Positions 19,109 to 34,629 of a DNA stretch of 64,000 nucleotides are shown one piece after another. The position numbers and the translations under genes are program-made. Each line of letters opens with the position of its first letter. Positions within the stretch are counted from its first letter, which is position 1. Source of the DNA: an uncultured Clostridia bacterium. GTDB taxonomy: Bacteria > Bacillota > Clostridia > TANB77 > CAG-465. Below the pieces are notes generated by a model. The model searched no databases, had not been told where the DNA came from, and saw only the letters and a list, made by a program, of their open reading frames with translations. The DNA lies in NCBI GenBank assembly GCA_934169925.1, contig CAKPOO010000003.1:62847-126846 (forward strand). Direction: 5' to 3'.

Positions 19109-20719
19109 ATGGCCAGTGTTTTAGGTATATTTGTAAGTAGTAATGTTATAAAATATGCAAAAATTTCAGAAGAAAGTGGTAAAAAACTTAAACTTGAAGA
19201 TTTTGGCGTAAGATTTGTTAAAGGAACTCAAAAGGAAACAATAAGAAGTATTATTGAAGAAACTAATTCTCAAAAGATTCCTATAGCAATCAATCCACAA
19301 GGCTCAAAATACATAAACTATGTAATGTTTGATCAGGCACAAGGTAGAAATGTAATGGCTGACGTTGCAAAAATGGAATTTGAAGCTTGGTGCGAAAAGA
19401 ATGCAAAATCTCCAGAAAAATATTCATATATTTATAAGGTTGCAGAAGTAAAAAATAATGAGAATAGATATAATGCAGTTTTGAATTTCATAGAAAAATC
19501 AAAGCTTGAAGAATGTTCTGATCTAGGGGGATACAAAGCTGATAATATTTTACCTGCTCAGTTTTCTATTAATAGATTAGTTCCTCAAGATGAGAAAAAT
19601 TATATGCTTGTAAATTTAGATGAAGCTTTATCTATTTGTGTTATTGTCGAAGGAAAGCTTTTAGAACTTAAATACTATGATATTGGTATGAAACAGATTT
19701 TAGATGACTTTTCTTTAAAACTTGGCTCTTATCAAAAAGCGTATGAAGCTTGCAAACAATTAAATGTTTATTCTGATGAAAGCACTAATAATAATCATGA
19801 ACTTGAACAAATTGCAGAACCAGTACTTCAAGAAGTGCTAAGAAATGTTGCAATCGTACTTAGTAAAAACAGAAATGAAATTGAAAAAGTATATATTACA
19901 GGTAATGGTATAGTATTTACAAATATGGATATTTTATTTAAAGAATATCTAAATATAAAATGTGAAATATTAAAACCAGATTTTATTCAAGATACAAGTG
20001 ATGTAAGAAATGTAGCTGAAATGCTAGAAACAGTTCAAGCTATGGCTTTAGCAGTTGAAACTCTTTCGCCTGTTAAAGAAAATTTGACTTTCTCACCAAA
20101 AGATGCAAAATCAAAATCAATGTTTGCATCTAGTGCTAAGCCTAAAAAATTACCAAAGAGAGAAAAAAGTAATGAAGATAGAAAAGAAAAAGAATTAAAT
20201 CTTCCAAGAAAAATTTATGATGCTTTGGTTTGTTCAAGTATTGTTATGATACTTGTCGTAATAGCATATAGCATTTTTGGTATAATGTATTCAAATAATA
20301 TAAATACAATGATTAAGAAAATTGACCAAAAAACAAATGAAATTACAACAGCAAAATCAGAAATTGATTCTGATATAACTTATATCTTAAATAATACTGC
20401 TAAATATAAAGTGGTTAATGATCAAGTAAATGACTACATTAATAACACAACAATATCACAAGTTAGATCAAAAAACATATATAATGTAGCAGCATTTATG
20501 CAAAGAATTGTAAAAATAATCCCTAACAATGTACAATTAAAATCAATTAAATCAGATGAAAATAAACATGTTACAATATCAGCTCAATCTGAAAGTTATT
20601 CATCTCTTGGATATTTCTTATCTGAATTGAAATTAAGTGGTACATTAAATAACATTGAGGTTAATACAGTTCAAAATGGTACAACAACAGTGGTTGAGAT
20701 AGGTGGTGATTTACCATAA
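19109..20719 (+). CDS. pilM: Type IV pilus assembly protein PilM (actin-like ATPase domain) fused to a PilN-like TM plus periplasmic region
   Basis: ORF 19046..20719. Probable ATG at 19109 after aaggag. The N-terminal about 340 aa has a PilM/FtsA-like architecture, followed by a TM (VCSSIVMILVVIAYSIFGI) and a coiled-coil periplasmic tail. Lies next to pilO, pilins, pilB, pilT and pilC. Confidence 0.65.
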   Translation: MASVLGIFVSSNVIKYAKISEESGKKLKLEDFGVRFVKGTQKETIRSIIEETNSQKIPIAINPQGSKYINYVMFDQAQGRNVMADVAKMEFEAWCEKNAKSPEKYSYIYKVAEVKNNENRYNAVLNFIEKSKLEECSDLGGYKADNILPAQFSINRLVPQDEKNYMLVNLDEALSICVIVEGKLLELKYYDIGMKQILDDFSLKLGSYQKAYEACKQLNVYSDESTNNNHELEQIAEPVLQEVLRNVAIVLSKNRNEIEKVYITGNGIVFTNMDILFKEYLNIKCEILKPDFIQDTSDVRNVAEMLETVQAMALAVETLSPVKENLTFSPKDAKSKSMFASSAKPKKLPKREKSNEDRKEKELNLPRKIYDALVCSSIVMILVVIAYSIFGIMYSNNINTMIKKIDQKTNEITTAKSEIDSDITYILNNTAKYKVVNDQVNDYINNTTISQVRSKNIYNVAAFMQRIVKIIPNNVQLKSIKSDENKHVTISAQSESYSSLGYFLSELKLSGTLNNIEVNTVQNGTTTVVEIGGDLP

Positions 20720-21414
20720 TGGTTGAAAATAAAAAAAGCTTAATTGCTATAATTGTTTTTGCAGTTTCTTTGATTTTATTAATAGTTGTTTTAAGTGGTG
20801 GTTTATCATCACTTGGTATAGTATCTCTAAAAGGAATAGGTGCTAAAAGAAATGATTTAGTAACTGCTGAAAACAATTACACATCTAAAAAAGCTTCATA
20901 TGATAGTTCTTTTGAAAATATTGAAACAGCAGAAAAAAATTATGATGCACAAAAGAAAAAATATGATTCTATTAGCGATGAAACAGTAAATGTTATAAAA
21001 AAATCAGCTAGTAATGAAAAATATAGTATCGAATATATGTGGATTAAACTTGGTAACTATGCAAAAAAAGATAATTTATCAATAGTAATTGTAGAACCAG
21101 GAAATGATTCAAGTGATACTTCTAGTAGTACAACTACTTCTACTACAACAAGTGATACAGTAAGTTTAGATAATACTACTACAAAAGAAACTACAGTGGC
21201 AACTGCAAAAAGTAGTGAAACTACACAAACTTCTAATGGTGAACCTTTAAAAATTAAAGTAGAAGGTAGTTATTTAAATATTGCAGATTTTATATTTGCA
21301 TTAGAAAGTGATAGTGAACTTAAATTTAGAATAGATAATATTTCAATGGAATATGTATCAGGTACTACAATATCTACTACATTTGAAGTTAAAAATGTAA
21401 CTATCTCTAAATAG
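20719..21414 (+). CDS. PilO-like pilus assembly protein (bitopic, coiled coil, Ser/Thr-rich linker)
   Basis: 231 aa with an N-terminal TM, a coiled-coil region and a poly-Ser/Thr stretch. Start codon overlaps the pilM/N stop. Confidence 0.5.
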   Translation: MVENKKSLIAIIVFAVSLILLIVVLSGGLSSLGIVSLKGIGAKRNDLVTAENNYTSKKASYDSSFENIETAEKNYDAQKKKYDSISDETVNVIKKSASNEKYSIEYMWIKLGNYAKKDNLSIVIVEPGNDSSDTSSSTTTSTTTSDTVSLDNTTTKETTVATAKSSETTQTSNGEPLKIKVEGSYLNIADFIFALESDSELKFRIDNISMEYVSGTTISTTFEVKNVTISK

Positions 21415-22326: not shown

Positions 22327-22896
22327 ATGAAAAATTCTAAAAAAGGTATTTCTTTAATAGTATTAGTTATAACAATCATCGTTATAATTATACTAGCTGC
22401 AGCAGTTATATTAACTATGCAAAAATCAAATCCTATTGCTGACGCAAGAACAGCAGTAGAAAAAGAAGATTACACAGAAGCACAAAATGCTTACAATATG
22501 TGGTTATCAAAAGTTATGGTAAAACAACTTGATACTGTAACATTCACTGGTTGGATTGGTGATATTTCAGATTTTAATGGTAAGACAAATGGTCATAGTT
22601 CATATTTAACTGATGGTAAAATAAATTCTATAACAACTAATGATTCATCATCAACTGCAACAACTCCACCAATAGTATCAACAGTAGGATTTGCAACTAG
22701 TTCACTTGCTAAATTAAATAGTGAAGTTATAACTAATTATGTTTCAACAGTAGATATTTCAAAATTAGGATTACCAGAACAAGTTAAAGCTATTTATGTA
22801 AAAGATAACAAAGTTATTGGATTATACAAAAATTCTACAGTTAGTTTCTTAAATCCTACTACTGATGTTATAACTGTTGATCAAACAATTGGTTAA
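22327..22896 (+). CDS. Type IV pilin-like protein, paralog 1 (class III-like signal KKG|ISLIV..., lacks Glu+5)
   Basis: 189 aa. Short basic leader ending in Gly followed by an approximately 25-residue hydrophobic helix. Residues 1-72 and the last 60 aa are nearly identical to the next ORF. Confidence 0.55.
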   Translation: MKNSKKGISLIVLVITIIVIIILAAAVILTMQKSNPIADARTAVEKEDYTEAQNAYNMWLSKVMVKQLDTVTFTGWIGDISDFNGKTNGHSSYLTDGKINSITTNDSSSTATTPPIVSTVGFATSSLAKLNSEVITNYVSTVDISKLGLPEQVKAIYVKDNKVIGLYKNSTVSFLNPTTDVITVDQTIG

Positions 22897-22919
22897 TTTA
22901 AAAATTATATAGGAGGAAA

Positions 22920-23513
22920 ATGATGAAAAATTCTAAAAAAGGTATTTCTTTAATAGTACTTGTTATAACAATCATCGTTATAATAATTCTTGCTGCAGCA
23001 GTTATATTAACTATGCAAAAATCAAATCCTATTGCTGATGCAAGAACTGCAGTAGAAAAAGAAGATTACACAGAAGCACAAAATGCTTACAATATGTGGT
23101 TATCAAAAGTTATGGTAAAACAACTTGATACTGTAGCTTTCAATGGTTGGATTGCAGCTGATGGTATTACAATGAGCACATATGCAGATACTGCAAAAGG
23201 TGGTGCAACTGGAGCTAATGGCAAAAGATTAAGTGATGGATATATTAAATCTCTAGATACAACTAAAGATGCAATTGATATAGACAAAACAATTACAGTT
23301 GGTTTTGCTACTAGTTCAAATGCTAGATTAAATAGTGATGTTGTAAATAATTTAGTAAGTAAAGTAACAATTTCTCAATTAGGATTACCAGAACAAGTTA
23401 ATGCTATTTATGTAGTTAATAATAAAGTTATTGGTTTATATAAAAATTCTACAATTAGTTTCTTAGATGTAGGTACTGATACAATAACTGTAGATCAAAC
23501 AACAACTAAATAA
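22920..23513 (+). CDS. Type IV pilin-like protein, paralog 2
   Basis: 197 aa. N-terminal 72 aa about 97% identical to paralog 1; conserved C-terminal block VGFATSS...LGLPEQV.AIYV..NKVIGLYKNST.SFL; divergent core. Confidence 0.55.
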   Translation: MMKNSKKGISLIVLVITIIVIIILAAAVILTMQKSNPIADARTAVEKEDYTEAQNAYNMWLSKVMVKQLDTVAFNGWIAADGITMSTYADTAKGGATGANGKRLSDGYIKSLDTTKDAIDIDKTITVGFATSSNARLNSDVVNNLVSKVTISQLGLPEQVNAIYVVNNKVIGLYKNSTISFLDVGTDTITVDQTTTK

Positions 23514-23582
23514 TTAAACATAGGTGAATTTTATGAAATAACTGTCGTTAGCAACATAAAATTTAAAGGATGAGTAATTTTT

Positions 23583-23631
23583 AAAGACATATACATATAT
23601 TCAATATGTGTATATGTCTTTAACCTTATAT
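23583..23631. promoter_or_regulatory. Near-perfect 22-bp-arm palindrome (hairpin or operator)
   Basis: aaagacatatacatatattcaatatgtgtatatgtcttt has one mismatch and no clear U-tract. It lies between the pilin genes and the pilD-remnant gene. Confidence 0.5.
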
Positions 23632-23723
23632 GTATTTGATATATTATATATTATGTATTTGTACATATTTTAGAATACATCTTTTTAAATGTAGTGTAAA
23701 ATGTGGATAAATAAGGAGGATAT

Positions 23724-24134
23724 ATGATTGTATTCTTAAATGTAATTTTAATTATTTGTATGTTTGTAATGGGATCTTTGTTTGGAAGTTTCTTTTCACT
23801 TGCAACATATAGATTACCTAGACATCAAGATATAATTGCTACTAGATCGTATTGTCCAAATTGTAAACATAGATTAAATTTTTTCGATTTAATACCTGTT
23901 TTTAGTTTTATATTTTTAGGTGATAAATGTAGGTATTGTAAACAAAAAATTAGTCCTAGATATTTTTTACTTGAAGTTTCTAATGGTTTACTGTTAGTTA
24001 TTTTATATCTAATTTTTGGATATACTATTAAACTTGCAATTATTTGGATTATTTATTCTTTTATTTTTGTTATTATTGGAGCTAAAATAATGGAAACAAA
24101 AATGTCAGATGAAGAGAAAAAGGAAGTGGAAAAG
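23724..24134 (+). CDS. Prepilin peptidase (PilD) N-terminal Zn-finger domain only; no A24 catalytic domain; in frame with the downstream pilin
   Basis: GSLFGSFFSLATYRLP...CPNCKHRL...LIPVFSFIFLGDKCRYCKQKISPRYFLLEV matches the PilD N-terminal domain, including its Cys tetrad. The region carrying the two catalytic Asp residues is missing. Confidence 0.6.
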
Positions 24135-24521
24135 ATGAAACTTTCAAAAAAATCTGGTGTGTTTATATCAGAACTTGTAATAGCTATAGTGTTATTTGCA
24201 ATTTTAATGATTTCAGTATTTACAATTTCAAGAAATTATACTAAAAATGCAACAGAAACAATTTTAAAATCTAATGCAAATGTAATTGCAGTAAAAAATC
24301 TTGAAATGTGTCTTGCAACGAAATATGATAAACTTGCATCATATACTTTACAAGAAAAGTTTCAAGATGTTACATATTCAGTAAATGTTAAAGTTGATTC
24401 TGTTTCAGATACTGATTTTTCAAAAAAGGATATAGTAAAAAAAGTTGAAGTAGAGGTAAGTTATATGCAAAATGGAGTAAAAAAGACACAAACTATTTCA
24501 ACACTAAAAGGTAAGGTGTAA
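24135..24521 (+). CDS. Prepilin-type minor pilin (MKLSKKSG|VFISELV..., canonical Glu+5)
   Basis: Internal ATG at 24135 within ORF 23724..24521. Class III signal with G|xxxxE and a hydrophobic helix. Confidence 0.55.
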   Translation: MKLSKKSGVFISELVIAIVLFAILMISVFTISRNYTKNATETILKSNANVIAVKNLEMCLATKYDKLASYTLQEKFQDVTYSVNVKVDSVSDTDFSKKDIVKKVEVEVSYMQNGVKKTQTISTLKGKV

Positions 24522-24524
24522 AAA

Positions 24525-24995
24525 ATGAAAAAAGGTATTACAATGCTTTCTTTAGTAATTTATGTTGTTTTATTTTTTGCATTTTCTGCAATTGCAATTT
24601 CTGTTTCTACGAATATGAATTTTAGGACATTATCAGAAAAAGGAATTATTTATTGCAATGAAGAGTTACAAAAATTACAATATAATTTACTAAATAGTGC
24701 TAAAAACAGTACATCTTGTGATATTATACAAAATACTTTTGTTTTTAGTAATGGTGATGAATATGTTTTTGATAGCAGTAATAAAAAAATATATAAAAAT
24801 GGAGGAACTCTTATTGATTCAATATCTAGTTGTTCTTCTATATCTGTATCAGAACTTAAGTCTACACCTGAAAATTTTGTATCAAATATAGACAAAGATG
24901 CAGAATATGTATGTTTAAATGTTGAATTTTCAAAATATAATCAAATTTTAAATACAGATTTATTTTTCAAGATAGGAGATGATACAGTTGAATAA
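24525..24995 (+). CDS. Minor pilin-like protein (MKKG|ITMLSLV..., no Glu+5)
   Basis: 156 aa with a pilin-like N-terminal helix and Cys residues in the C-terminal region. Confidence 0.4.
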   Translation: MKKGITMLSLVIYVVLFFAFSAIAISVSTNMNFRTLSEKGIIYCNEELQKLQYNLLNSAKNSTSCDIIQNTFVFSNGDEYVFDSSNKKIYKNGGTLIDSISSCSSISVSELKSTPENFVSNIDKDAEYVCLNVEFSKYNQILNTDLFFKIGDDTVE

Positions 24996-25209
24996 ATTAA
25001 AAAATATTTCAAAATTAAAAGGCTCTGGAATTTTGGTAGTAATTTTATCAGCTATTGCTTTTTCGATTTATTCAATGAGTGTTTTTTCAGAATCTAAACA
25101 TTTTAGTTTGATATTTAGTAAGTATGAAAAAAGTATATCAAATTATTATGAAAAAAATGTAAATGATGTAGATGGATTTTATGATTATATTTTAAAGTTA
25201 AATAAATAA
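24979..25209 (+). CDS. Small pilin-like protein
   Basis: 76 aa; LKGSGILVVILSAIAFSIYSMSVF is a pilin-like helix. Confidence 0.3.
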   Translation: MIQLNKLKNISKLKGSGILVVILSAIAFSIYSMSVFSESKHFSLIFSKYEKSISNYYEKNVNDVDGFYDYILKLNK

Positions 25210-25212
25210 TAG

Positions 25213-26868
25213 ATGGGAGTGTATGTTAAAATGTTTGAAAATGTTAGAGAAAAAAAGAGTCCAATAGGACTAGAGTTTATTAAACAAGGATTACTTACAG
25301 AATCTCAAGTTGATAGAGTTCTTGAATATCAAAGAGAACACAAAGAATTAAAATTTGCTGAAATTGTTGATGTTCTTGATATGTGTAATAAACAAAAATT
25401 ACTTGAAATTTTATCAGAAAAAATTAAAGTAACTATGGAACCACTAGAAGGAGATTTAGATATAAATCCTGTAGAATATTTACCAAGAGATATAATTATA
25501 AACTATAGAGTTATACCTTTTGATTTAGTTGGAAAAACTTTAAAAGTTGCTTTTTCTGATCCACTTGATGCAAACCGTGTAAGAGAAGTAGAACTTTTAC
25601 TTATGAACCAAGGTTACGATATGGAGATTTATGTTACATTATATACATCTATAATGAAACAAATTTCAAATTTAAAAAATGTTGGTACAAAATATGTTAA
25701 TAAAGAAGAAAAAGATGTAACTAAATTAATTGATAATATTATTTTAACAGGTATTGAAAAAAGAGCAAGTGATATTCACTTTGAACCAATGCAAAATAAA
25801 ATAAGAGTAAGATTTAGAATAGATGGTCAACTTGTAAATATAACTGAACTTCCAAAAGAAAGACAAGAACTTATCGCAGGAAGAATTAAGTCTATTTCTA
25901 ATATGTATCAAGAAATTCAAAATGACCAAGATGGTAGTATTGATACTTTTGATAACTATAGTATCCGTGTATCTAGCCAAAAAAATGTTAACGGAGAAAA
26001 GTTTGTTCTAAGACTTTTAAAGAAAAATACAGATGCAAAAGATTTATTTGAACTTGGATTTTTCAATGATAAAGAAACTATTGAAAAAGCATTTAACAAG
26101 AAAAATAGTATAATTCTTGTCTGTGCTCCTACTGGTGAAGGTAAAACTACAACTTTATATAGTGTTCTTGAATATTTAAATAGACCAGAAATAAACTTAA
26201 TTTCAATTGAAAACCCAGTTGAAAGAAGAATACCTGGTGTAAACCAAGTTGAAATTGGTGCAAATATAACATTTGCATCTGCATTAAGAACAGTTTTAAG
26301 ACAAGATCCAGATATAATTCTTGTTGGTGAAATACGTGATGAAGAAACTGCAAAAATAGCAATTGAAGCTGGTCAAACAGGTCACTTAGTTTTATCTACA
26401 ATACATACAATTGATGCTGTTGAAGCTATAACAAGACTTAGAAAAATGGGAATTTCTGATTATGATGTATCAGCAACACTAGTAACATCTATATCAGAAA
26501 GACTAGTAAGACGTTTATGTCCAAAATGTAAAAGACCTCATACTTTTACAGAAGATGAATTAAAATATATTCAAAGAGCAGAAAAAATTTCTGGAGTTAA
26601 TTTTGATTTAGAAAACGCACAACTTTTCGAACCAGTTGGTTGTGAATATTGTGATAATATTGGTTATTATGAAAGAATAGGTATATTTGAATTGTTATCT
26701 TTAGATGAGTATTTAAAAGATATGATTTCAAGTGGAAGATCAACTATTGATATTCGTAAATATGCAAAGGAAAATACAGGATATGAACCATTAGTTGTTG
26801 ACGGTATAAGAAAAGTATTAGAAGGAATTACTACAATAGATGAATTAAAAACAAAAATAACTCTATAA
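25213..26868 (+). CDS. pilB: Type IV pilus assembly ATPase PilB (GspE family)
   Basis: 551 aa. N-terminal GspE_N-like domain, Walker A CAPTGEGKTTTL, tetracysteine motif CPKC...CEYC, His box. An alternative ATG lies at 25231. Confidence 0.85.
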   Translation: MGVYVKMFENVREKKSPIGLEFIKQGLLTESQVDRVLEYQREHKELKFAEIVDVLDMCNKQKLLEILSEKIKVTMEPLEGDLDINPVEYLPRDIIINYRVIPFDLVGKTLKVAFSDPLDANRVREVELLLMNQGYDMEIYVTLYTSIMKQISNLKNVGTKYVNKEEKDVTKLIDNIILTGIEKRASDIHFEPMQNKIRVRFRIDGQLVNITELPKERQELIAGRIKSISNMYQEIQNDQDGSIDTFDNYSIRVSSQKNVNGEKFVLRLLKKNTDAKDLFELGFFNDKETIEKAFNKKNSIILVCAPTGEGKTTTLYSVLEYLNRPEINLISIENPVERRIPGVNQVEIGANITFASALRTVLRQDPDIILVGEIRDEETAKIAIEAGQTGHLVLSTIHTIDAVEAITRLRKMGISDYDVSATLVTSISERLVRRLCPKCKRPHTFTEDELKYIQRAEKISGVNFDLENAQLFEPVGCEYCDNIGYYERIGIFELLSLDEYLKDMISSGRSTIDIRKYAKENTGYEPLVVDGIRKVLEGITTIDELKTKITL

Positions 26869-26881
26869 TTTAGGAGGAAAA

Positions 26882-27979
26882 ATGGAAGCATTAGATTCAA
26901 TTTTGCAAAAAGCACTATCTTTAGGTGCTACAGATATTCATATTATTGTTGGTCAATTACCAATTTATAGAATAAGACGTGAACTTGTTTATGATCAATC
27001 AAAATTACCAATGTCAAAATCTACTATTTTAAAAATAATGGAGTACTTTTATGAAAATTATCCAACTTTAAAAGATGATTTTGAAGAAGATAAACAAGTT
27101 GACTTTACTTATTCATACATGGAAAATAGATTTAGAATTAATATATCTTTATCAAAAAGTAATCCTACTTTTTCTATTAGGGTTATACCTAATGGAAGTA
27201 TAAAAGTTAGAGATTTAGGATTAATTGATATAATAAATAAGATGAGAACTATTCAAAGTGGTTTAATCTTAGTTACAGGTAAAATTAATTCTGGAAAAAC
27301 TACAACTATGAATGCATTCATACAAGAAGTAAATAAATCTGATAAGAAAAAAATTGTTACACTAGAAGATCCAATAGAATATGAACACATATCTCAGGAA
27401 TCTGTTGTTATTCAAAAAGAAATAGGAAAAGAACTTGATGTAAAAGATTATAAATCAGGTCTTATAAACCTACTTAGAGAAGATGCTGATATTGCCGTAA
27501 TTGGAGAAATAAGAGATAGAGAAACAATGGACGTTGCTTTAGATCTTGCAGAATCAGGGGGACTTGTTGTAGGTACACTTCATACTCGTTCTTGTGGTGA
27601 AACATTAGAAAGAATTCTTTCTTTATATGATGGTAGTGAAAAAGCTGCTATAAAAAATACTTTGTCATCTGTTTTAAAAATGGTAATTTCTCAAAAATTA
27701 ATCATAAGTAAACAAAATGAATTACTTATGGTACCAGAAATAATGATGGTAAACACTGTATTAGCAGCTATAATACGACAAGAAAAGTTTAATATTGGTG
27801 ATATAGAAGATTCTATACATTCACAAAATGATATAGGATGTGTTAGTTTTGAACAATCTTTTACAGATCTTTATATAAGAAATTTAGTTGATTTAAAGAC
27901 TATAAAAGAAAATGTTGATCCAGAAAGATTTAAAATTATTAAAAATCTAATAATAAGTTCTGGTGTATCACTTGAGTAA
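26882..27979 (+). CDS. pilT: Twitching-motility / pilus retraction ATPase PilT
   Basis: 365 aa. LVTGKINSGKTTT (Walker A), GEIRDRETM (Asp box), VVGTLHT; length typical of PilT. Confidence 0.8.
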   Translation: MEALDSILQKALSLGATDIHIIVGQLPIYRIRRELVYDQSKLPMSKSTILKIMEYFYENYPTLKDDFEEDKQVDFTYSYMENRFRINISLSKSNPTFSIRVIPNGSIKVRDLGLIDIINKMRTIQSGLILVTGKINSGKTTTMNAFIQEVNKSDKKKIVTLEDPIEYEHISQESVVIQKEIGKELDVKDYKSGLINLLREDADIAVIGEIRDRETMDVALDLAESGGLVVGTLHTRSCGETLERILSLYDGSEKAAIKNTLSSVLKMVISQKLIISKQNELLMVPEIMMVNTVLAAIIRQEKFNIGDIEDSIHSQNDIGCVSFEQSFTDLYIRNLVDLKTIKENVDPERFKIIKNLIISSGVSLE

Positions 27980-28025
27980 TTTTTTTATTTATAATATAAT
28001 GAATTTATGTGGAAGGAGATAAAAG

Positions 28026-29381
28026 ATGCCAAGTTATAAATATAGAGTAATATATGAAGATGGAAAAATTGGTAGAGGCAGAATACTTGCTAAAAGTAAG
28101 GCTCATGCTATTGAAAGTTTAAAAAATGATAATGTTCAACCTGTATCTATTCAAAGACAGAATGATCCACATAAGAGATTTAAAAAAATTGATTATAAAA
28201 GATTAGTAAGATCTCAAATTATGAAAAATCAGAATTCGAGAGAAAAACATACTCAAAAGGAAAAGATTGATTGGAAAAACTTAACTTTAAGAGACTTAAA
28301 AAAATTAGAATTTCATCCTTTTAGACATGTTACTAGTAAAGATATAATTTCTTTTGTTAATAACTTTTATATATTAAAAAAGGCAAAATTTAATAATGTT
28401 CAAGCTTTAGAAGCTTTATATAATGGTGTAACAAATCCTGCTTTCAAATCTATAGTTGAAGATTTATTAATAGGAGTTCAAGATGGTGAAAAAATATATA
28501 AGATAATGATGAGTTATCCTAAAGTTTTCCCACCAATATTTGTTAATTTCATAAAAGTTGGTGAAGAGTCTGGTACACTTGATAGTGCACTTATATATGC
28601 AAGAGATTATGTAGAAAGTTCTATGGCTTTAAAAAAGAAAATAAGAGCGTCTGTTATTCCAAGAGTTTTACAATTCTTTGGTATAATTATCATGATGTGC
28701 GTAGCTGTTGTTATTGGTGTACCGATGTTACAAGATGTTTATGACATGTTTGATTCATCTGCTGAAATACCAGCTGCTACAATGGGACTTTTAAATGCAG
28801 TTAACTGGTTAATTGCAAATTGGTATTGGGTAGTACTAGGAATTGGTGTTGTAGTATTTGGTTTCTTAGCTATTATAAGTACGACAAGAGGCAGATATAA
28901 TTGGGATAAGTTCTTATTTAGGTGTCCAGTGCTTGGAAATGTTATAAGGAATATAACAATTGAGAAGTTTTTTCTTGCAATGCTTCTTAACTTAAAAAAT
29001 GGTTTAAGATTACAAGAAAGTTTAGAGATATCAAAAACTGTTACAAACAATCTATTTTTCTTATCAACAGTAGAAATTGCAAAAGCAAATGCTATAACAG
29101 GTGAATCTTGGATTACACCTTTTGTGGATAATAAAATATTTACACCTATGATGTCACAAATGGTATCAGTAGGTATGAAAACAGATATTGTTGAAATGAT
29201 AGAGAAAGTAAATGTATATATAAGACAAGAAATTGATGAATCAGTTGCAAAATTTGTTAAAGTTTTACCTGATATTACATATCTTTTTGTTGGTATAGCA
29301 TTGATTGCCTTTGTTATAACAATTGTTGTTCCAATAATTGGAGTATACATGGGAAGTTTCATAACAATCGATAGTTATTAA
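28026..29381 (+). CDS. pilC: Type IV pilus inner-membrane platform protein PilC (GspF family)
   Basis: 451 aa with two T2SF-type repeats separated by TM helices and a typical N-terminal cytoplasmic domain. Confidence 0.75.
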   Translation: MPSYKYRVIYEDGKIGRGRILAKSKAHAIESLKNDNVQPVSIQRQNDPHKRFKKIDYKRLVRSQIMKNQNSREKHTQKEKIDWKNLTLRDLKKLEFHPFRHVTSKDIISFVNNFYILKKAKFNNVQALEALYNGVTNPAFKSIVEDLLIGVQDGEKIYKIMMSYPKVFPPIFVNFIKVGEESGTLDSALIYARDYVESSMALKKKIRASVIPRVLQFFGIIIMMCVAVVIGVPMLQDVYDMFDSSAEIPAATMGLLNAVNWLIANWYWVVLGIGVVVFGFLAIISTTRGRYNWDKFLFRCPVLGNVIRNITIEKFFLAMLLNLKNGLRLQESLEISKTVTNNLFFLSTVEIAKANAITGESWITPFVDNKIFTPMMSQMVSVGMKTDIVEMIEKVNVYIRQEIDESVAKFVKVLPDITYLFVGIALIAFVITIVVPIIGVYMGSFITIDSY

Positions 29382-29526: not shown

Positions 29527-29602
29527 GTACCATTAGCTCAGTTGGTAGAGCAGTTGCCTCTTAAGCAATTTGTCCAGGGTTCGAGCCCCTGATGGTGCAC
29601 CA
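29527..29602 (+). tRNA. tRNA-Lys (anticodon CUU)
   Basis: Manual fold: acceptor GUACCAU/AUGGUGC (one G-U pair), D-arm GCUCAGUUGGUAGAGC, anticodon loop CUCUUAA, T-arm CAGGG-UUCGAGC-CCCUG, encoded CCA. Confidence 0.85.
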
Positions 29603-33378: not shown

Positions 33379-33795
33379 ATGAAAAGTTCAAAAAAATTCT
33401 TATTAAGAATAATACCAGTTTTTGTTGTTTTAAGCATAATATTAACTTCAGTAACAGGAGTTTTTGCATTTGGTAATTTTAATGATATTTCTGAGATTAA
33501 TAAAGGTGCAGGAACTACTGGTGATGGTGTTACATCTGTTAATGGTGCTGTAAATAGAGTATGGAAAACTGTTGTAACTGTTTTACAAATATTAGCAGTT
33601 GCTGCAATAGTTATAGCTGGTGTAAGATATATGTTTGCTTCAGCTGATACAAAAGCTGATATAAAAGGACAAACAGTTGGACTTGTTGTTGGTGCTGTAC
33701 TTGTTTTCGGTGCATCATTTATCGTTCAATTTATTATTAATGTTACTTCAGATGTTACAGGGGTAAAAGAATCACAACAAACACAACAACAATAA
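33379..33795 (+). CDS. VirB2/TrbC-like T4SS pilin paralog 1
   Basis: 138 aa. Signal peptide followed by two hydrophobic helices (TVVTVLQILAVAAIVIAGVRYMF / VGLVVGAVLVFGASFIVQFII) separated by a short charged loop, which is the VirB2 topology. Confidence 0.55.
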   Translation: MKSSKKFLLRIIPVFVVLSIILTSVTGVFAFGNFNDISEINKGAGTTGDGVTSVNGAVNRVWKTVVTVLQILAVAAIVIAGVRYMFASADTKADIKGQTVGLVVGAVLVFGASFIVQFIINVTSDVTGVKESQQTQQQ

Positions 33796-33844: not shown

Positions 33845-34234
33845 GTGAGATTTATGAATAAATTTAAAATCTTTGCAATAGTCATACTTGTTATTACTTT
33901 ATTTTTAACATTATATCCAGTGGTGTATGCAGATTTTGGAGAAGGTTTTGATCCTAGTAAGGTTGCATATGATAAAGTGTTAGAGGATGATACAGGTGTT
34001 GGAAAAATTACAAGCCCTATAAACAAAATTTTTAATACAATAGTTAGAATTTTACAAATTTTGTCTATTGCAGGAATAATATTAACAGGTCTTAGATATA
34101 TGCTTACAACTGATACTTTAAAAAAAGCAGATTTTAAAGAATCTACTATGTATTTGATAATAGGTATGGTTATAGTATTTTGTGCAAGTACAGTAATTGA
34201 ATTTATTGTAAAAGCTGCAGATGAAGTAATATAG
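33845..34234 (+). CDS. VirB2/TrbC-like T4SS pilin paralog 2
   Basis: 129 aa with the same architecture; the conserved motif IL.ILQI(L/V)S(I/V)A...I.TGL(R/K)YM is shared with paralogs 1 and 3. Confidence 0.55.
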   Translation: MRFMNKFKIFAIVILVITLFLTLYPVVYADFGEGFDPSKVAYDKVLEDDTGVGKITSPINKIFNTIVRILQILSIAGIILTGLRYMLTTDTLKKADFKESTMYLIIGMVIVFCASTVIEFIVKAADEVI

Positions 34235-34254: not shown

Positions 34255-34629
34255 ATGAATAATAGTTACAAAATATTATTTAAAATAATGGCTATTGTAT
34301 TTATAGGTATCATTATTGCAAGTAATGTTAGCATTGTTTTTGCAGATGATCTTTCTGATTTTAACAGTACAGATTTTAATGCTGGAGAAGAAAGCGTAGA
34401 AAAGATTGATACTGCCGTTCTTAAAATTTGGAAAACAGTTGTTACAATTTTACAAATTGTTTCTGTTGCAGCTGTTATTATTACTGGACTTAAGTATATG
34501 TTTGCATCATCAGAGAAAAAAGCTGACATAAAATCTATGTCACTTGGATTTATTGTTGGGGCAGTTATTGTCTTTGGATCTTCGTTTGTTGTATCCTTTG
34601 TTATAAAAGTTGTACAAGATACAATATAA
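34255..34629 (+). CDS. VirB2/TrbC-like T4SS pilin paralog 3
   Basis: 124 aa, same architecture. Confidence 0.55.
   Translation: MNNSYKILFKIMAIVFIGIIIASNVSIVFADDLSDFNSTDFNAGEESVEKIDTAVLKIWKTVVTILQIVSVAAVIITGLKYMFASSEKKADIKSMSLGFIVGAVIVFGSSFVVSFVIKVVQDTI

Follow-up and report, generated by a model that had tools for sequence, protein, structure and literature searches.

What remains of a prepilin peptidase once its protease domain is gone, and why should its reading frame run on into a prepilin? These questions are raised by a gene in a stretch of 64,000 nucleotides from an uncultured Clostridia bacterium (CAG-465; contig CAKPOO010000003.1, positions 62,847 to 126,846 of the forward strand), which is analysed here as a whole and called the window. 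A single open reading frame (ORF) of this window joins the N-terminal module of the prepilin peptidase PilD to a minor prepilin. The original prediction had left open whether this is a deletion remnant of pilD, an assembly artefact or a novel fusion; comparison with related sequences indicates a conserved and functional fusion gene under purifying selection. Its features, all on the forward strand, are the following (a vertical bar marks a predicted cleavage site; aa, amino acids).

23713 to 23719, + strand: strong Shine-Dalgarno (SD) sequence AAGGAGG, 4 nt 5' of the ATG at 23724, read directly from the DNA
23724 to 24521, + strand: fusion gene, a single uninterrupted ORF of 265 codons plus stop (265 aa)
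23724 to 24092, + strand: PilD-type N-terminal ("methylase", IPR010627/PF06750) module, residues 1-123
23853 to 23939, + strand: Cys tetrad C44-x2-C47 ... C69-x2-C72, from the family alignment, family-invariant
24093 to 24158, + strand: K/E-rich linker, predicted to be cytoplasmic and, judged by alignment, the former leader peptide; residues 124-145, ending K143-S144-G145
24135 to 24137, + strand: internal ATG (M138), preceded by an SD-like GGAAG element; not family-conserved
24156 to 24161, + strand: predicted prepilin-peptidase cleavage site G145|V146, with the motif G-1, acidic +5 and hydrophobic tract
24159 to 24518, + strand: minor pilin of the GspI/EpsI/XcpV type according to its predicted structure, residues 146-265

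The first 120 or so residues had been assigned to the N-terminal domain of PilD, and this assignment was confirmed. PF06750 (A24_N_bact) matches residues 15-97 (model positions 1-83/84, E = 7e-29), and C44, C47, C69, C72 and the RYFLLEV segment are all present. The module consists of a first transmembrane (TM) helix, a cytoplasmic Zn-ribbon loop with a net charge of +7, and two further helices, TM2 and TM3, and it ends near the point where canonical PilD has its first catalytic Asp. The earlier description of a peptidase reduced to its Zn-finger domain is therefore right about the lost protease, but not about the extent of the remainder, which keeps the third TM helix to about the first Asp. 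In prepilin peptidases, IPR010627 is known as the methylase domain; it takes in TM helices 1 and 2 and a C4 zinc finger on the cytoplasmic side (PMC10191384, PMC3584216). Zinc is needed for S-adenosylmethionine-dependent N-methylation and not for cleavage (PMC3584216, PMC10191384), and the Cys tetrad as well as a Gly and a basic residue next to the third Cys contribute to methylation (PMC3584216). The basic residue, K68 in the window protein, is family-invariant, and the pair K68-C69 is kept throughout. Just before it, the window protein has D67 (23922-23924) where the family has G or A, which could mean an altered or lower methyltransferase activity in the window species. A search of PDB sequences with the family profile gave only chance zinc-finger matches and sub-threshold geopilin matches, with no solved bacterial PilD N-domain among them.

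The catalytic region of the A24 peptidases is absent, as had been predicted. Peptidase_A24 (PF01478) was not detected in the fusion protein by Pfam even at E <= 1, the NCBIfam scan gave nothing beyond the Pfam result, and a GxGDxK/GxGD expression had no match in the six-frame translation of the 64-kb window. PF01478/IPR000045 is said to be "always" present in prepilin peptidases (PMC4471445). The protein has four hydrophobic segments, beginning at about residues 1, 79, 98 and 140, of which the fourth is the N-terminal part of the pilin helix alpha1, and not the about eight TM helices of prepilin peptidases. Since it lacks PF01478, the Asp dyad and the eight helices, three of four family features, and has only the fourth, the N-terminal PF06750/IPR010627 with CxxC...CxxC, the fusion protein on sequence grounds is not a member of the prepilin peptidase family, and not a peptidase by the known mechanism, although databases name it "prepilin peptidase".

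Could the retained module, or a dimer of it, nevertheless cut its own G|V site without any separate peptidase? One alignment register (MAFFT) places D129 opposite the first catalytic Asp of canonical relatives. TM3 is followed by an acidic patch, [DE]-E-E (E131 in 135/155 members), that lines up with the canonical GID[KR]E motif, and the scissile bond lies where a substrate would meet Asp1. That no separate A24 gene was found near the loci (see below) would also fit. The Asp1 column is variable, however (D 43, E 64, other 48; n=155), and is deleted in P0132, a family member; a second Asp in a G.G[DE] context after residue 110 occurs in just 1/155 members scored; and the characterised A24 enzymes all need both Asp residues (PMC10191384). 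Moreover, the other four pilins of the operon would still require a peptidase. Self-processing is thus very improbable, and the catalytic Asp residues, whose presence would have spoken against the prediction, are not there.

The stop-free passage into the second half was likewise borne out, including the position of the internal ATG. After the K/E-rich stretch the frame reads M138-KLSKKSG145|V146FISE150LVIAIVLFAILMISVF and continues for about 100 more residues. In the predicted structure (predicted local distance difference test 85-92), the pilin half, with E150 at +5, has a 55-residue alpha1 helix and a four-stranded sheet. This prediction places a long alpha1 helix on an antiparallel beta-sheet as in pilins and suggests a GspI fold, with which the small size agrees; in the structure comparison further pilins stood lower in the match list, and Foldseek was in agreement. 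Sequence identity to GspI/EpsI/XcpV of the type II secretion system (T2SS) and to PilV-type tip-complex minor (pseudo)pilins is just 12-20 %, and the T2SSI model of Pfam did not match the pilin half. The class III motif K-x-G|V-x-x-x-E is intact, with G145, E150 and the hydrophobic tract in place. No pilin N-terminal model (Pfam N_methyl, TIGR02532) was found at E <= 1 in Pfam/NCBIfam, a weak negative because HMMER filters easily lose short-motif models. The term "canonical prepilin" used earlier therefore applies to G-1, E+5, the hydrophobic tract and the predicted fold, but not to the Val at +1 or to profile recognition.

The short hydrophilic leader of 6-26 aa that is typical of prepilins is also missing, 145 residues with three TM helices preceding G-1. 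The last eight residues before G-1 are leader-like, with a net charge of +3 to +4 in the window protein and a family mean of +3.2. The linker varies from 11 to 50 aa across the family and is nearly absent in P0132 ('...GTKFQKKKG|VFITE'), the frame being kept regardless. The distribution of charges agrees with the experimentally known topology of PilD and would put both the Zn loop and the K-x-G|V site in the cytoplasm and the pilin head outside, a topology compatible with the geometry required of a prepilin peptidase substrate.

How widespread is this architecture, and is it maintained? A search of 5.8 billion proteins yielded 547 homologues. The best 120 of these are 255-299 aa long, cover 94-100 % of the query at 49-64 % identity (one is identical) and carry PF06750 alone, and the same architecture occurs in more than 120 protein clusters (90 % identity clustering). 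When one genome per GTDB species was scanned, relatives were found in 342 species, and the best 80 were classified; 47 of these species representatives belong to the fusion family (46 fused, 1 split; 34-65 % identity). Every host of the family is an uncultured Clostridia bacterium of the gut, sampled from humans, rabbits, chickens or buffalo; Clostridium sp. CAG:921/465/1219 are among them, and the clade is of low GC content. Residues C44, C47, K68, C69, C72, K143, G145 and E150 are invariant in 33 aligned members. The combination of G-1, an acidic +5 and a hydrophobic tract is found in 174/175 non-identical members; among the 174, +5 is E in 167 and D in 7, Val occupies +1 in 163, and Lys nearly always stands at -3. 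Of the two halves, the N-domain is more strongly conserved, with 44-71 % identity as compared with 24-55 % for the pilin half.

Within the species of the window, the 90 % cluster has 14 members, all of 265 aa save a 143-aa member on a 981-bp contig. The 265-aa protein cluster is present on more than 30 independent contigs of up to 316 kb, with constant lengths and no frameshifts, and this recurrence disposes of an assembly collapse as the origin of the fusion. The gene differs from conspecific alleles by 11-12 synonymous and 2 non-synonymous changes, corresponding to a ratio of non-synonymous to synonymous rates (dN/dS) of 0.04-0.05; the pilin half shows 7-8 synonymous and 0 non-synonymous changes. 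A dead pilD running by chance into the next gene would therefore have to explain a dN/dS of about 0.04 and a frame kept across the family. It would also have to explain an architecture with invariant motifs retained at 34-65 % identity in at least 46 species representatives, a strong SD sequence of its own, and constant length on more than 30 contigs. In its favour are the history of the gene, which arose by loss of the A24 region between adjacent genes, and the decay of the catalytic GxGD in a sister group (group 2, below). The pseudogene half of the original prediction thus holds for the history (A24 lost between pilD and a pilin with E5) and fails for the present, there being no decay; selection and frame conservation rule it out to the point that we give it next to no probability. 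The other half, a novel fusion of a PilD N-domain and a pilin, is the one upheld by the more than 120 clusters, the species representatives and the invariant motifs.

A different question is whether the long frame is merely incidental, with an N-domain protein and a separate prepilin initiated at M138 (leader MKLSKKSG) as the real products. The ATG at 24135 with its GGAAG element would give an 8-aa leader of charge +3, and one relative, L046, has the two halves as ATGA-overlapping genes, on 35 contigs. A Met within 25 residues before G-1 is, however, found in only 48/174 members, which is about chance level, so that use of an internal ATG is not a feature of the family. Also, there is no stop codon, and the N-domain would still carry the pilin unless cleaved; and the frame is kept in all but one of the 47 species representatives despite the A-rich and variable linkers. 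Internal initiation as the explanation of the family is improbable; in the window species some of it is possible.

The origin of the fusion can be followed in the relatives, which show three states at the same operon slot: canonical, group 2 and fusion. The canonical proteins P0151, P0172 and P0173 have PF06750 plus PF01478, with the motifs GID[KR]E...IPD and GxGDIK. An intact pilD in related genomes, for which the original prediction had suggested to look, is thus available in P0151, which occupies the same slot and is followed by minor pilins, pilB and pilC; P0172 lies on a short contig where just the adjacent gene is visible. In both cases the next gene encodes a small prepilin ('MKSNNG|YSLIE' and '...SSKKG|YSLIE'). 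Group 2 comprises 33 species representatives (loci L052-L084, for example L069 9965-10774 and L052 10001-10810) with a full-length "PilD" in the same slot, in which the polytopic domain is kept and the N-domain is highly conserved. PF01478 no longer recognises this polytopic domain; a custom hidden Markov model (HMM) detected A24 homology in seven members (E = 2e-7 to 1e-3), with which the others align. In group 2 the first Asp column is D in 26 and E in 7 (n=33), and the aspartate column of GxGD is never D (I 25, L 3, V 2, N 2, T 1). These proteins are probably pseudo-peptidases annotated as prepilin peptidases. The gene downstream of them encodes a prepilin with an acidic +5 ('MTENENG|FSTID' or '...KSENG|VTGQD').

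In the fusion family the peptidase breaks off near its first catalytic Asp, with all that would follow lost, and the N module is joined to the downstream prepilin. These states, when compared, indicate an ancestral pair of genes, pilD and then an E5 minor pilin, from which the fusion arose when the protease module was lost in frame, and in the alignments the leader of the downstream prepilin is what became the fusion linker. In a neighbour-joining tree of 94 N-domain columns, monophyly of the fusion was recovered in 1/30 and 5/40 resamplings, and canonical P0151, P0172 and P0173 clustered with group 2. Group 2 as an evolutionary intermediate was rejected as unsupported on account of this clustering, and because the tree groups the three canonical proteins with group 2, the fusion and group 2 look like parallel losses of protease competence with the N module retained.

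The closest species-level relative, L046, is the one split member. Its N-terminal ORF ends in '...KRLKK' at a TGA that overlaps the ATG of the prepilin (ATGA), and its stand-alone prepilin P0137 has a normal 12-aa leader, MNNNKKLSKNSG|VFISEL. The stand-alone pilin was found on 35 contigs and 143-aa N-domain proteins on 26. L046 is nested among the fusion tips in 30/30 resamplings, and the fission lies within an A6 run of the A-rich linker (L046 10400-10440), where one added A would restore the fusion. Judging from this position in the tree and in the linker, L046 represents a secondary split of the fusion, with the two resulting genes coupled in translation. In the slippage-prone K/E-rich (A-rich) linkers, indels of a single base may switch a gene between fusion and fission, and because the fission form exists, the two halves would be able to work as separate polypeptides. 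L046/P0137 is the only genuine fission counted; two further candidates for stand-alone pilins were discarded, P0181 as a fragment of a 263-aa cluster mate and P0192 as a truncated gene call.

The fusion gene always occupies one and the same position in a syntenic type IV pilus (T4P) operon, whose other parts in the window are given below.

19046 to 21414, + strand: pilMN fusion (557 aa) and PilO-like gene (231 aa), upstream part of the same operon
22327 to 23513, + strand: two tandem major-pilin paralogues (189 and 197 aa), 'KKG|ISLIV', no acidic +5
23581 to 23623, + strand: terminator/attenuator-like hairpin with a 20-bp stem, between the major-pilin genes and the fusion gene
24525 to 25209, + strand: two small pilin-like genes (156 aa, 'MKKG|ITMLS', and 76 aa, '..KGSG|ILVVI'), syntenic in all relatives
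25213 to 29381, + strand: pilB (551 aa), pilT (365 aa) and pilC (451 aa), Pfam T2SSE/T2SSF on the conspecific locus L087

The gene order pilMN, pilO-like, small genes, pilins, fusion, 156-aa gene, 76-aa gene, pilB, pilT, pilC is found in all loci; in the window, two small genes lie between the PilO-like gene and the tandem major pilins (22327, 22920). The pilin of the fusion is the sole pilin of the operon with an acidic +5. The other four putative prepilins (22327-22896, 22920-23513, 24525-24995 and 24979-25209) lack it, and none of them is recognised by Pfam; the major pilins of group 2 likewise read 'KG|ITLVA'. To judge by these motifs, this looks like an E5-less variant of bacterial T4P, in which E5 occurs only in the pilin that adjoins the PilD N-domain or is fused to it.

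Three terminator-like sites were found, where 0.2 were expected. The hairpin at 23581-23623, which may act as an attenuator that sets the expression ratio of major to minor pilins, has a perfect 20-bp stem and lacks a clean T-run in its 3' tail; L046 has a similar one. Promoter-like sites between 22800 and 25300 were not above the level of shuffled sequences (20 vs 22.5). The pilMN ORF (19046-20719) is listed with a GTG start, conspecific calls are 536-538 aa long, and translation probably begins at an internal ATG some 20 codons further on.

Which enzyme would cleave the fusion protein? A GxGD expression alone is insufficient as a search, since divergent A24 domains such as those of group 2 lack the motif. 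An HMM of 27 canonical A24 catalytic domains (--max) found nothing in the window or in the fusion loci, and tblastn with the C-domains of group 2 found nothing in the window or in any fusion locus. Pfam scans of 20 mid-size ORFs of the window, together with inspection of unassigned membrane ORFs, gave no peptidase candidate, and an A24 gene was also absent from 4.7 kb further upstream of the window. With no A24 peptidase in the sequence covered, the cleaving enzyme is hypothetical here.

With moderate confidence we favour a model in which the fusion is processed by a peptidase acting in trans to yield an E5-bearing priming pilin and a free N-domain. The four-TM precursor would enter the membrane so that its Zn loop and K-x-G|V site both face the cytoplasm. 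Cleavage after G145 would fall to a prepilin peptidase whose gene lies in another part of the genome. One product would be a GspI-type pilin with E5 that primes filament assembly together with the two downstream minor pilins; the other would be a free, membrane-embedded PilD N-domain acting without a protease partner. Since E5 is a known determinant of methylation, this domain would most likely N-methylate the new Val1 of its former pilin partner; alternatively, it might serve as a pilin-docking module. In T4P, G-1 is critical for cleavage, and E5 is dispensable for cleavage and important for methylation (PMC4471445).

Several points weigh against this model. No A24 peptidase is present in the 64-kb window, in the 4.7 kb upstream of it or within +/-10 kb of the 47 fusion-clade loci. 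The leader of 145 residues with three TM helices is far beyond the range of class III leaders of 6-26 aa, and that IPR010627 suffices for methylation "remains to be formally demonstrated" in the words of Berry and Pelicic (PMC4471445). D67 of the window protein replaces the Gly that contributes to methyltransferase activity in Pseudomonas aeruginosa PilD, where it stands before K-Cys3 (Pepe and Lory, 1998, as reported in PMC3584216). The other operon pilins lack E5, and so may not be substrates of the methylase. The N-domain tree recovers the fusion family as monophyletic in just 5/40 resamplings and does not establish a single origin. Also, we know of no prepilin peptidase that accepts a 145-residue leader with three TM helices.

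Some of these points would be accommodated if the protein were never cleaved. A single four-TM polypeptide could dock with its pilin part at the base of the minor-pilin priming complex or at the assembly platform and tether the PilD N-domain there, as a methylase for incoming pilins or as a structural adaptor, without ever entering the filament. Such a scaffold would agree with the lack of a peptidase near the fusion loci, with a polytopic leader unlike any known substrate (PMC4471445), with the better conservation of the N-domain, as for a functional core, and with P0132, in which the site lies almost without linker directly against TM3. It is hard to reconcile with G-1 and an acidic +5 in 174/175 members and Val at +1 in 163/174, which would be difficult to explain if the site were never processed. 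Similarly, the natural fission form is an ordinary short-leader prepilin, and so is the orthologue in relatives. We regard the uncleaved scaffold as unlikely, and processing in trans continues to be the model we favour.

A further-reaching and rather doubtful idea is that the N module of PilD is autonomous and needed without any A24 protease, and that these genomes hold no conventional prepilin peptidase at all. If true, their T4P would mature via a different protease, by self-cleavage of the tethered G|V site, or with an uncleaved, membrane-anchored primer. In this T4P variant, whose major pilins have no E5, the canonical catalytic residues of the operon's pilD are gone from two lineages, through deletion in the fusion family and through decay of GxGD in group 2. 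By whichever route maturation proceeds, the fusion family would be the first "methylase-only PilD" known from nature, showing what IPR010627 does alone.

How does the fusion compare to known systems? It shares with PilD/GspO/ComC (MEROPS A24A; PF06750 + PF01478) a full PF06750, the C4 zinc site, the basic residue before Cys3, the same topology of the cytoplasmic loop and a gene in the pilD slot of a T4P operon, but it lacks the A24 module, with the GxGD aspartate and 4-5 TM helices gone, and has a prepilin attached instead. TadV/FppA and FlaK/PibD also show that the two modules of PilD are separable in nature; they are the reciprocal case, being peptidases without the methylase domain. In contrast to GspI/EpsI/XcpV, the pilin half of the fusion has Val at +1 and a "leader" of 145 residues with three TM helices in place of 6-26 hydrophilic residues. 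The modular pilins PilB/PilC of Streptococcus sanguinis are a precedent for the grafting of domains onto pilins; there, the extra module is C-terminal on the mature pilin and exposed on the filament, whereas in the fusion it is polytopic, lies N-terminal to the cleavage site and would go on maturation. PilMN fusion and TadB/TadC fission are precedents for the fusion and fission of adjacent genes of type IV filament machines, and pilMN is fused here too. In the open-access literature we found no published fusion of a PilD N-domain and a prepilin, no example of a methylase module without a functional peptidase, and no description of a polytopic module that precedes a class III cleavage site. By all these comparisons, the fusion is best described as two known parts joined, a PilD methylase module and a GspI-type minor prepilin.

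Some features around the operon should also be recorded. The GC content in the window is 20-29 %, and the spoIIIA operon lies immediately upstream of the pilus operon. In it, spoIIIAA is split into two overlapping ORFs (13860-14336, 158 aa, and 14329-14748, 139 aa) that match positions 6-157 and 160-291 of the Spore_III_AA profile. The same split is seen in the conspecific contigs L087 and L088 and is therefore not an error of the window. A tRNA-Lys gene (29527-29602) is located between pilC and the downstream region. From 31021 to 52554 (for example 33379-33795, 33845-34234 and 34255-34629) there follow genes for TraX, SSB and, on the - strand, an M23 peptidase, and then a run of large ORFs after three paralogous genes for TrbC/VirB2-like pilins of type IV secretion systems (T4SS). 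This is a conjugative-T4SS or integrative-and-conjugative-element-like region directly downstream of the pilus operon.

In summary, the fusion family represents a natural dissection of PilD, in which the methylase module is under strong selection without the protease module and is physically linked to the only pilin of the system that carries E5, with one species having a stand-alone version of 143 aa. This makes long-standing questions testable, namely what N-methylation is for and whether IPR010627 suffices for it, and it offers experimental handles on the sufficiency of the module for methylation, on E5 as a recognition element and on polytopic leaders as peptidase substrates. It is also a clean example of fusion followed by fission in the evolution of type IV filament machines. 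Finally, both the fusion proteins and those of group 2 are systematically mis-annotated as "prepilin peptidase" in databases, and predictions of T4P competence for abundant uncultured gut Clostridia may for this reason be wrong.

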